This document shows positions 15,001 through 18,000 of a DNA stretch of 64,000 bases, piece by piece (within the stretch, counting starts at the first letter, position 1; every line of letters starts with the position of its first letter). A program made the position numbers. Location of the stretch: the NCBI RefSeq assembly GCF_030013595.1, contig NZ_CP122772.1. The stretch is one strand, 5' to 3'. The DNA comes from Escherichia coli. Its GTDB lineage: Bacteria > Pseudomonadota > Gammaproteobacteria > Enterobacterales > Enterobacteriaceae.

Positions 15001-18000
15001 CGAGTACGAAATCCGTTACGAACTTAATGGCCAGACTATTTATGTATTGCGCCTGTGGCACACACGAGAAAACAGGTAGATTGTGTGTGGGGACAACTTT
15101 AACATAGCCTGCAGGTATTAATTCTGGAGCTTTGTTATCAGGTCAGATATTTTGCATTCCATTAAATAATCTTGATCGATAGGAATTTAAATCCCCAAAA
15201 GACTAAAAAAGCACCACAAAACGGATATTTCTTCAACACCCCTTGTGCACCATATGAGCGGAAACGACTATTAAACAGGATGACACTGATTGATACAGGG
15301 TATGAATGGCGGTTTTTTGCTCCGTTTCCGGTAAAATGGACGCAACTTCCCCTCTGCGGCTCTCAGCCGCACACCTGCTGTCGTGCCAGTCGCTCATGCA
15401 TCAGGACCAGCTCTGCCAGTCGGTAACCCCGCTTCAGCCCCGTAAAACGCATCTGACTTCCGCACAGAATGCACTTCAGCGGGTCAACCTTCAGTAACCT
15501 CTGATACATCCCTCTCCACCTGATTTGCATCGCCGTTTTTCTCACCGTCTCCGTTATGACGTACACAACTTCTTCCAGTAAGCGGCGCTTCACCGGACTC
15601 AGGAAACCGTAGTACCTCACCATACGGAACCCCTTATCTGCTACATGCCAGGAGAACCTTTCCATGAACTCATCTCCACTCATCAACAGGTATTCTTCCC
15701 GTTTTGTACGGTGACTGTTGTAACGCAGACCGATTTCATCCTGACCGGCATAATGCTCCAGCCGACTCATCGGCACCGGTGGCTTTTTCAGGTAAGAGCC
15801 GAAGTACACCGCCACATGTGTGGCGTTATCCATCACCCTGGATATGTTGACATTCCAGCCGCGGCGGTAATGCGTGTCCAGGAAGCGATTCCAGTCCCGT
15901 TTGCTGTTTCCTTCCACTGCCAGTTCATCCGGTATTACCAGCTCCGGGTATTTCCGGGACAGTAGCCGCGTTATCCGGTAACGCCACATGCTCATCACCT
16001 TACGCGCGTAAAAATGAAGATTTTTCCAGGTGTGGCCCGACGTCACACCACCGGCAGTTGTCGATAAATGGATATGCGGATGCCACTGCTGGTCACGCCC
16101 CCATGTGTGGATCACCGTGAATATCCCCGGCTCCACATCTGTCTGATGGCAGATTTCCAGTATCACATCCGCTGCAATGCGGCTCATCTCTGCCAGTAAC
16201 CACCGGTTGTGGAACACCAGGGACCAGTACTGGCAGGGAAGTGTGAACACAATATGCTGCCACGGGCAGTCGGGGACCAGGCTCAGCAGATACTGTATCC
16301 ACTGTGCGCCAGCCTTCACCCCGCAGTGCGGACAGGAGCGGCTTTTACACCGGAAGCAGACCTTTTTGGTGTGGCAACAGTCCGGTGACGAACAGCACCA
16401 TTGCGTGTAGCCCATCAGCGTGGTCCCGCATGCCATGATTTTTGTCACTGACTCAGTCACCACCGGACGCACTGAACCTTCCGGCTGTTTCTCCAGCCAG
16501 TTAAGCCAGCGGTTACCCTGCTGAAAAATATCGGCAAAACGGGGAAGCATCAGACGGGTGGGGTAACGCCATCCGGCCAGTGAACTGTGCCGCATTCCGG
16601 GCAGTACATACCACCGGCACTGATACCGGCAAGAATGGTTGCAAACTCCCGCTCCGTACAGCGGGCTATTTCCGGATACCCTTCGTCATCGACACGAACA
16701 AACCAGAAGACCAGCTTTTTGTTTCCTGCATCCAGAAAGAACGGAATACCCAGGTCAGCGCAGCACTCAACGGCATCGTCAAAATTATCAAAGCGCAGAA
16801 CTTCAGCGTCTTCTTCGTCAAAAAAATCATCCGGATGAAGTTTCACAACATAGCGGGGAAGTTTGCTTCTTTGTGGTGCGGGTTTGCGTTTACGGGGTTT
16901 AGCTGAACGGGCCATATAACTACCTGAAAGACAATGACATTATCTTTTTTTATAACGGTAATTCCAGACCATGACAAGCCGCAGCCGCCAGGCTGCCTAC
17001 TCGATTCTCTCGTAGAATGTGTCGTCTGGCTGAACGAAAAAACCGCCTTGGTGGGCGGTTTTTCAAAGGTTTATGGAGTTGGCGCTCGTTGAACCGAGGT
17101 AACTGGCTTGGAGGAGCGCAGCCTCCAAAATAACCTGAATGTCCAAATGGGACAGAGATTATGTAACTGAGGGATTTACTAGCGTTGTTAGAAAGGTGGC
17201 TTATCAGGAGATCTATAAAAATGCAAAAGCCCAGTTTTTCAACTGGGCTTCGCGGTCCCTCAAGGGGAGAAAATCTGAATGGCCTCTATGGGCTACACAG
17301 CTAGTTTAACAAATCAGTAGGTTGTGTCAACAGTAAACTATTTTTCGGATTCCTGCTGTGCTGGTACAAGCGCAGTTGCATTGATAGCTTTGATTACAGC
17401 TTTTTGTAGGTTTGTGACAATTTCACGTGAAAGTGTCTGCGTTATCCATCCCCTATCTACTGCCATAGGTCTGTTAAGTCGCTGATTACTTACTGTTTGA
17501 ACCATGTCGCATTTAACCCAACTAGTTGTTTGTGGGAAATATTTTGCTGGTTTAATTATCCCCTCAGGTAACTCAACGTGAAGGCCATTATTAAGTTTAG
17601 CTGGATCTTTTGTGGTTGAAATCGGAACCACAATACAGGCATTGCCATTCAGACGCCCATTCAATACAACGACGAGTCTACATTTAATCATTTCTGGGGG
17701 AATATGAGCATCGACAGCAGTCGAAACTACATCTCCTTTTTCATCTTTCAAGTAGTTTCCGTAATTACACGTGAGAATTTGCCCCACTTTAGGGGAAAAA
17801 TTTATCGGCATATCAGAGCCTTCAGATAGTCAAAGAATAGAACATAGATTACTACACAGGAAAGGCTATGCGCTACATGGCGTATATAATTCTATGATCA
17901 TGAGGAAGCAGCTCCTCACCAGGACAGAAAATGCTGTATGTCCAGTCAACCGAAGAATTATAATGGCAACCATGATCATCACAGGAAGAACGAGTAACAG

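Follow-up and report, generated by a model that had tools for sequence, protein, structure and literature searches.

A MazF-fold yifN gene on a pig Escherichia coli plasmid is paired with a conserved two-hairpin small RNA: a candidate nuclease–RNA module

Results

In a 64,000-nucleotide (nt) stretch of Escherichia coli DNA (NCBI RefSeq assembly GCF_030013595.1, contig NZ_CP122772.1; hereafter the window), a portion of an IncF-type plasmid of pig enterotoxigenic E. coli (ETEC), we found that a yifN-family gene encoding a putative MazF/PemK-fold endoribonuclease (positions 17338–17811, minus strand) is directly followed by an independently promoted small RNA (sRNA; 17296–17216, minus strand). 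A first-pass annotation of the window had treated the gene as solitary and had sought a partner upstream; neither view held, as the conserved partner lies downstream. The yifN–sRNA module is present in Gamma- and Betaproteobacteria, on plasmids, in a phage-like element, and in about three-quarters of complete E. coli genomes; to date, yifN carries the annotation "orphan type II toxin" and the sRNA has stayed anonymous. We tentatively propose, with slightly less than even confidence, that YifN and its two-hairpin sRNA form an unrecognized class of toxin–RNA antitoxin (or nuclease–RNA) system, in which YifN would be the first MazF/PemK-family toxin neutralized by a small RNA.

YifN is a long member of the PemK/MazF family

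The 157-amino acid (aa) open reading frame (ORF) starts with ATG and matched the Pfam PemK_toxin family (PF02452), scoring 50.7 bits (cut-off, 23.1; E = 2.4e-13), in agreement with the MazF/PemK pattern noted in the first-pass annotation. The protein has the SH3-like barrel of the MazF/Kid/CcdB fold with a C-terminal helix. MazF proteins use an Arg at the start of β2 and a Thr or Ser at the end of β3 as catalytic residues. Residues were mapped using a joint MAFFT alignment of the family with the MazFs of Bacillus subtilis and E. coli, whose reference sequences were checked against the PDB chains 4me7 and 3nfc. In this alignment, YifN R45 corresponded to R25 of B. subtilis MazF and R29 of E. 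coli MazF, S65 corresponded to T48 and T52, respectively, and the invariant E40 was aligned with the MazF loop Glu. Four residues (G10, E40, R45, and R111) were invariant across the YifN family and the MazFs, and 28 YifN-family members had G10, C15, G18, P38, E40, K43, R45, N51, P63, S65, S108, R111, L112, Q136, and A145 in common. A comparison of the family profile with single MazF sequences using hhalign gave partial support, too weak for residue mapping.

YifN is 41 to 46 aa longer than the MazFs of E. coli (111 aa) and B. subtilis (116 aa), close to the excess of about 45 residues over canonical toxins that had been reported, and the MAFFT alignment placed the extra residues in the β1–β2 loop, at about residues 68 to 100, ahead of the C-terminal helix, and in the tail. 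The extra length is a family trait, since full-length homologs are mostly ~143 to 170 aa long. The 97 homologs were matched with 95 to 100% coverage, and many of them are called "YifN (PemK superfamily)" by the Joint Genome Institute, which answers the earlier question of a YifN-like versus a MazF protein in favor of the former. On sequence grounds, membership of the window protein in the YifN/COG3692 family can be regarded as settled. It is a plasmid-borne paralog with 53 to 54% identity to the intact E. coli chromosomal YifN; E. coli YifN appears as the pseudogene b3775–b3777 (COG3692, "PemK superfamily"), and the window protein is of the same length class and has the invariant residues.

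This is a small family: when 1.84 billion cluster representatives were searched with its profile, 113 clusters (50% identity) were obtained at E ≤ 1e-10; PHROG 15698 (function unknown) also matched. Searches of NCBIfam and of PDB sequences with YifN gave only chance-level matches to arginine decarboxylase, with none in the PDB even when the profile was used. A literature search on YifN, COG3692, yifO, and PemK plus sRNA, with subscription journals outside its coverage, found no published function for any YifN member.

The closest relative was found in Intestinirhabdus alba, in which a 722-bp block is 93% identical to window positions 17184–17905 and is flanked by unrelated sequences. We therefore describe this unit, which is common to other genomes and comprises leader, yifN, promoter, and sRNA on the minus strand, as the whole two-gene module. 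The I. alba protein is 97% identical to the window YifN; the low rate of nonsynonymous change (dN 0.014) compared with that of synonymous change (dS 0.29; dN/dS ~0.05) shows that YifN is under strong purifying selection. Homology with I. alba begins at position 17905, at the outer end of a conserved 94-nt leader (17812–17905, minus strand) that contains a weak Shine–Dalgarno sequence, GAAGG. A promoter scan of the 94-nt leader revealed no consensus promoter upstream of the yifN ATG.

A small RNA with its own promoter lies downstream of yifN

A shadow ORF 3′ of yifN clustered across distant loci, and for this reason the 3′ flanks were compared, which led to the sRNA. The flanks followed a common plan: a promoter, with its -35 box often overlapping the yifN stop codon; after 6 to 7 nt, an RNA starting with GUAGCCC; a mini-hairpin; a U-rich linker; a second, similar mini-hairpin; and an intrinsic terminator. 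The mini-hairpins had stems of 3 to 4 bp and a loop that was usually C-W-U-W-G-A.

In the window, all of these parts are on the minus strand. The sigma-70 promoter (17303–17330) starts 8 nt past the yifN stop codon and matches the consensus at 10 of 12 positions, with a -35 box TTGACA (17330–17325), a 16-nt spacer, and a TG-extended -10 box TAAACT (17308–17303). The sRNA itself (17216–17296, ~77–81 nt) was supported by covariance model, fold, and conservation. Its hairpin 1 (GCC/CAUAGA/GGC, RNA nt 4–15; 17282–17293) was supported by covariation, RNAalifold, and the minimum free energy (MFE) fold, and its hairpin 2 (UCCC/CUUGA/GGGA, RNA nt 29–41; 17256–17268) by the MFE fold and the model-guided alignment described below, in which it aligned more poorly than hairpin 1. 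The RNA ends in an intrinsic terminator hairpin with a U-tract (17223–17253; 17251–17226 in the terminator scan). The MFE fold of the window RNA alone consisted of the same three hairpins (z-score -3.2), and RNAalifold independently predicted hairpin 1 and the terminator.

The gene had been credited with its own terminator. The terminator is real, but it lies 87 nt after the yifN stop codon and behind a separate promoter, and it belongs primarily to the sRNA; it probably also ends transcripts that read through from yifN. In Chimaeribacter californicus (locus L014, 4001–4501), yifN is extended to 166 aa and its stop codon lies inside hairpin 1, so that gene and RNA overlap.

The sRNA is structurally conserved and strictly linked to yifN

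A blastn search with the 138 nt past the yifN stop codon matched 24 loci at the same position with 72 to 92% identity; the proteins encoded at these loci are only ~42 to 60% identical to the window YifN. We then aligned 38 non-redundant sequences with MAFFT, without fitting them to any structure, and derived a covariance model from the result. When 54 sources (468 kb, both strands), including sequences outside the training set, were scanned, 50 gave a single match of 25 to 80 bits, always directly 3′ of yifN; every other match scored ≤24 bits, and the weaker ones were mostly terminators read backwards. The window sRNA scored 79 bits (17220–17296, E = 2.8e-16). The four sources that gave no strong match were a 582-bp contig cut at the 5′ end of the RNA (L006), a locus with yifN truncated at residue 65 (L047), Haemophilus influenzae (L048, 19.6 bits), and a Vibrio phage variant (L062). 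The 582-bp contig is filed as Streptomyces purpurascens; the YifN encoded on it has 71% identity to the window protein and is followed at the contig end by the first 16 nt of the sRNA, and the contig is almost certainly enterobacterial contamination of that assembly.

The hairpins were examined for compensatory changes. In the MAFFT alignment, hairpin 1 was 94.7% paired with compensatory changes at three of three pairs, and the covariation of the whole structure was 0.33, compared with 0.15 in shuffled alignments (0/500 reached the observed value) and ≤0.13 with slid partners. In the model-guided alignment of 46 sequences, which leans to the structure and whose counts overstate independent events, hairpin 1 was 100% paired with compensatory changes at all three pairs (GC 37/CG 6/GU 2; CG 33/GC 12; CG 41/GC 4), and covariation was 0.45 versus 0.15 in shuffles and ≤0.14 in slid controls. 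Hairpin 2 was 77% paired with compensatory changes at all four pairs, and the terminator was 90% paired with such changes at 8 of 10 pairs. As the hairpin 1 stem, most Enterobacterales and one Pseudomonas clade have GCC/GGC, Stenotrophomonas and a second Pseudomonas clade have GGC/GCC, Pasteurellaceae plasmids have CGG/CCG, and H. influenzae has CGC/GCG.

The promoter was conserved as well. At the fixed offset from the RNA, 45 loci had a mean promoter score of 9.6/12, compared with 5.5 at random positions, and 37 of them scored ≥9/12, compared with 7 of 900 controls. On a Shewanella plasmid, the sRNA is convergent to yifN and hence forms a transcription unit of its own. When the window and I. 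alba are compared, the sRNA differs at 0 of 77 nt and the promoter spacer at 5 of 41, against a dS of 0.29 in the gene.

Linkage was also evident in the reverse direction. A degenerate RNA pattern found 40 matches in metagenome contigs, with yifN directly upstream in 38 of the 39 that could be evaluated, although these contigs are mostly E. coli-like and hence not independent. The sRNA is carried by 82 plasmid records and adjoins a YifN match in every cross-checked case, and among the loci examined we found no intact yifN that lacked an RNA-like element downstream. Scanning of viral contigs with the RNA pattern returned no match. No Rfam 15 family reached its gathering threshold, either in the window region or at 18 loci; the best subthreshold match, to rnk_pseudo (RF01772, 24.3 bits against 55), was driven mostly by the terminator and was dropped after Pseudomonas and other loci had been checked. 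No tandem or direct repeats were present in 16900–19200.

The sRNA is an ortholog of ecr3777 and outlives yifN

A 79-nt sRNA of E. coli K-12, "ecr3777 (d+)", has been listed in the ppiC–yifO spacer on the yifN strand (PMC4681348, Table S5); it was among the new sRNAs tested by northern blotting, and Conway et al. 2014 is also credited. The window sRNA is orthologous to ecr3777: their position after yifN, strand, and size agree, and their hairpins are nearly identical. The literature covered, which did not extend to subscription journals, contained no function for ecr3777 and no link to yifN, and RefSeq has no annotation of it.

The chromosomal rep–yifN–RNA–ppiC locus is present in 4015 of 5426 complete E. 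coli genomes, with yifN intact in O157:H7 and frameshifted in K-12. The sRNA is kept beside frameshifted or truncated yifN in E. coli K-12, Shigella, S. quinivorans, and H. paracuniculus. Orphan sRNAs (65–79 bits) with no yifN within reach were found in Yersinia ruckeri pLT beside the plasmid rep (replication initiator) gene (L065, 1501–1578), on Pseudomonas aeruginosa megaplasmid(s) (L066, 1501–1576), and on a metagenome contig from which yifN is deleted and in which the promoter spacing is altered (L079, 2333–2409). Those of Y. ruckeri and P. aeruginosa have a recognizable promoter or -10 box. Orphan sRNAs might serve as "anti-addiction" RNAs.

No protein antitoxin accompanies yifN

The observation that no antitoxin-sized ORF lies beside the gene was extended. 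No such ORF flanks yifN on the same strand in the window, and all-versus-all clustering of ORFs within ±2.5 kb of yifN at 45 genome loci showed that only yifN itself was common beyond close-species synteny, with no consistent small ORF abutting it. Overall, neither the window nor about 50 related loci contained a protein antitoxin. The annotated neighbors are unrelated housekeeping or plasmid genes. In H. influenzae, yifN is preceded by ppiB (3-nt gap) and accompanied by tatD. Serratia has genes for a MetQ-like lipoprotein and for a MerR-family regulator beside yifN, Photorhabdus has mutS, and Roseateles has a gene for an uncharacterized 349-aa protein. A primase gene is 2 nt away on a 6.3-kb Glaesserella plasmid, and a resolvase gene is 3 nt away on an Actinobacillus plasmid.

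The only candidate put forward earlier, a short hydrophobic ORF upstream of yifN, exists on the minus strand as 38 codons with a GTG start (17866–17982) but is not conserved, because homology with I. alba starts inside it, 94 nt upstream of the yifN ATG. It is thus cut by the homology breakpoint, has no Pfam match and no Shine–Dalgarno sequence, and was rejected as an antitoxin.

A peptidyl-prolyl isomerase adjoins yifN in two distant lineages, namely the cyclophilin gene ppiB upstream of yifN in Haemophilus (L048, 3488–4432) and the parvulin gene ppiC downstream of the sRNA in E. coli O157:H7 (L063, 1506–2435). The two isomerases are unrelated to each other, and the adjacency may be a coincidence or a functional link.

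Even the most divergent loci, in a Vibrio phage-like element and on a V. vulnificus plasmid, retain repeats. In Vibrio phage 10N.237.312.D05_PE001, a Vinavirales phage-like element (L062, 3369–4500), a YifN-like gene lies 20 nt after the gene for an S24 LexA-like repressor and is followed by four ~11-nt (U/C)AUUGAG repeats in place of the two-hairpin RNA; this placement looks like that of a prophage exclusion gene. Remote long PemK relatives with 31 to 35% identity, on a V. vulnificus plasmid (L108, 1171–1810) and on E. coli p5217 (L109, 937–1860), have a small ORF overlapping or abutting them upstream, so the YifN family borders on classical type II arrangements. The V. vulnificus locus has in addition a downstream promoter, two GCC/GCAA/GGC hairpins, and a terminator. 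These two loci could be intermediates between protein and RNA control.

The module lies in an IS91-flanked plasmid segment

Dozens of plasmids carry identical segments, and in them yifN is named "type II toxin-antitoxin system PemK/MazF family toxin" by the NCBI Prokaryotic Genome Annotation Pipeline (PGAP). The yifN segment of these pig ETEC plasmids is IS91-flanked: an IS91 transposase gene is located at 15363–16595 (minus strand), and several IS91 copies bracket the segment in related plasmids. A short ORF (16934–17005, plus strand) and a 491-aa ORF (20145–21620, minus strand) have an identical 24-residue start, MTLSFFITVIPDHDKPQPPGCLLD; we take the latter to be a topoisomerase III fragment. 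The shared start and the transposase suggest that IS91-end sequences were fused to a truncated topB. About 85 nt beyond the sRNA terminator, adjoining an IS91 end, is a full-length match to ColE1-type RNAI (Rfam RF00106, 72.9 bits; 17034–17133, minus strand), which could be either a relic or a second replicon control region.

Other toxin-related elements are nearby. A DinQ-like type I toxin ORF (18601–18696, minus strand) is annotated as dqlB in identical plasmids, and AgrB-like antisense RNAs (RF02891) occur at 19008–19095 and 19648–19732 (plus strand; 64 and 56 bits, respectively); no obvious toxin ORF of ≥30 aa accompanies the second copy. With the DinQ/AgrB elements and the yifN module, at least two toxin modules under RNA control would be stacked in the IS91-bounded segment. 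In addition, a classical type II module consisting of a ribbon–helix–helix antitoxin and a RelE/ParE toxin is located at 14526–15079 (plus strand), 2.3 kb from the yifN module.

Discussion

Our preferred reading, in which we have about even confidence, is that the locus is a type III-like module whose linked sRNA binds a MazF-fold nuclease directly and so keeps it inactive. According to this model, YifN would be an endoribonuclease that keeps the catalytic Arg and Thr/Ser and, presumably, forms a homodimer like other MazF/Kid proteins. The ~80-nt sRNA, made in excess from its own near-consensus promoter, would be the antitoxin and would bind the nuclease directly, blocking it as a decoy or pseudo-substrate; the pair of hairpins would correspond to the pair of RNA-binding sites in a YifN dimer. 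Read-through from yifN to the shared terminator would place one copy of the RNA at the 3′ end of each yifN mRNA, and the strong RNA promoter, set against weak or read-through transcription of yifN, would ensure the surplus of RNA. If the module were lost or its transcription shut off, the nuclease would be freed and growth would be arrested, and on the ETEC plasmid the module could act in plasmid maintenance, phage exclusion, or both. An asymmetry of the kind expected for a toxin and its antitoxin was seen, in that the RNA is retained where yifN has decayed and also occurs as an orphan, whereas intact yifN without an RNA-like element was not encountered; this asymmetry, the mobility of the 722-bp unit, and the replication- and lysogeny-gene neighborhood on small replicons fit such a toxin–antitoxin reading. 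Of the three options that the first-pass annotation had offered (a self-contained regulator, a toxin controlled in trans, or a toxin with an RNA antitoxin), the evidence thus favors the last, and the other two are less favored.

Several points weigh against the proposal. Toxicity, nuclease action, and sRNA binding of YifN are predictions, and PADLOC matched no defense system at the yifN locus. Across genera, the sRNA is more conserved than the YifN protein, which could mean that a conserved cellular partner, and not YifN, constrains it, and the orphan RNAs and the RNAs kept after yifN decay fit an RNA with a function of its own equally well. Chromosomal yifN often occupies housekeeping-looking spots, such as ppiB–yifN–tatD in H. 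influenzae and rep–yifN–ppiC in E. coli, and addiction modules are not usually found in such positions. Because many of the loci are related, the covariation counts do not represent independent events, and the support for hairpin 2 is weaker than that for hairpin 1. As both hairpins are repeats of one motif, a long-range helix between hairpin 1 and hairpin 2 is an alternative; we prefer the local hairpins because that helix was not separated from slid controls. Finally, the architecture differs from that of all described type III systems.

Some of these points bear on a different reading, in which the sRNA is the primary product, a regulatory or sponge RNA acting on host targets, and YifN is its binding partner or a nuclease dedicated to its processing or maturation, so that the locus would encode a ribonucleoprotein rather than a toxin–antitoxin module. 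The better conservation of the RNA, its survival of yifN decay, its existence alone on plasmids with an intact promoter, the U-rich linker and Rho-independent terminator that it has in common with many trans-acting sRNAs, and the core-like status of the locus in E. coli (4015/5426 genomes) would all be expected on these terms. However, the sRNA has no known target, the role known for MazF-fold proteins is that of toxins rather than maturation factors, and the repeated-hairpin layout suits a dimeric binder; moreover, like addiction and exclusion modules, the module travels beside replication or lysogeny genes on plasmids, on small replicons, and in a phage-like element. We judge this reading, the main rival, rather unlikely. 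It is more doubtful still that YifN is truly solitary, being non-toxic or controlled in trans, and that the downstream element is merely an mRNA-stabilizing 3′ untranslated region with a terminator. The element is indeed on the same strand and ends in the sole terminator after yifN, but a near-consensus promoter stands at a fixed distance of 6 to 7 nt ahead of the first conserved RNA base at 45 loci, the Shewanella sRNA is convergent to yifN, orphan copies have the promoter without the gene, K-12 makes a discrete 79-nt RNA despite its frameshifted yifN, and the covariation includes hairpins outside the terminator.

Two further explanations seem very improbable to us. The sRNA could pair with the translation-initiation region of yifN and block translation in a type I-like manner, as the linkage of a strongly promoted sRNA to a putative toxin gene in tisB/istR-1 and dinQ/agrB might suggest. 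Yet the sRNA is encoded on the same strand without overlapping the gene; RNAduplex paired the 5′ 50 nt of the sRNA with the -60 to +40 region of its own yifN no better than with shuffled targets (mean z -0.21, 44 loci); and yifN starts are embedded in very different upstream genes, whereas the RNA is nearly invariant. Equally hard to credit is the notion that the hairpins act as palindromic DNA operators for a DNA-binding protein, the RNA being incidental. Symmetrical changes also arise in short inverted repeats to which dimers bind, and these can mimic covariation, but hairpin 1 contains G–U pairs (GU 2), the sites are downstream of the transcription start and away from the promoter, and the RNA is detected in vivo in K-12; in addition, MazF-family proteins bind RNA, and the DNA binding of such systems comes from the antitoxin, which is absent here.

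Thousands of genomes label yifN as a type II toxin without an antitoxin, and the linked sRNA offers a concrete answer. Should the sRNA prove to be the antitoxin of YifN, RNA antitoxins would extend to MazF, the best-studied toxin family; an E. coli sRNA lacking a function would gain one; and a maintenance or defense module would be added to the virulence plasmids of pig ETEC. Since K-12 hosts express a near-identical chromosomal sRNA, toxicity of YifN could be masked in standard cloning.

Comparison with known systems

YifN belongs to the same Pfam family as MazF, PemK(Kid), and ChpBK, adopts their fold, and has kept their loop Glu and their catalytic Arg and Thr/Ser; it differs from them in being ~45 aa longer by insertions and in having no PDB match by sequence. 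MazF-type type II systems have a MazE/PemI-type antitoxin upstream, whereas yifN loci have none and the partner is a downstream sRNA; therefore, the "type II" label given by PGAP is unsupported. Type I systems combine a small hydrophobic peptide with an RNA antisense to the toxin mRNA, in contrast to the 157-aa soluble MazF fold of YifN.

Type III systems (ToxIN, CptIN, TenpIN, and AbiQ/antiQ) have toxins of the ToxN/AbiQ, CptN, and TenpN families and an RNA of 2 to 5.5 tandem repeats of 34 to 45 nt located upstream in the toxin operon, with a terminator between the repeats and the toxin gene, whereas YifN belongs to PF02452 and its sRNA is downstream, has its own promoter, and consists of two ~12-nt mini-hairpins. 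Judged from sequence, the yifN module would thus resemble type III in logic while departing from it in toxin family and in the upstream tandem repeats. CsrB and RsmZ sequester CsrA dimers through repeated short hairpin-loops, and the repeated short hairpins of the yifN sRNA could likewise titrate a dimeric RNA-binding protein, but here the protein fold and the motif are different, the sites number only two, and a genetic fusion joins the RNA to the gene of its partner.

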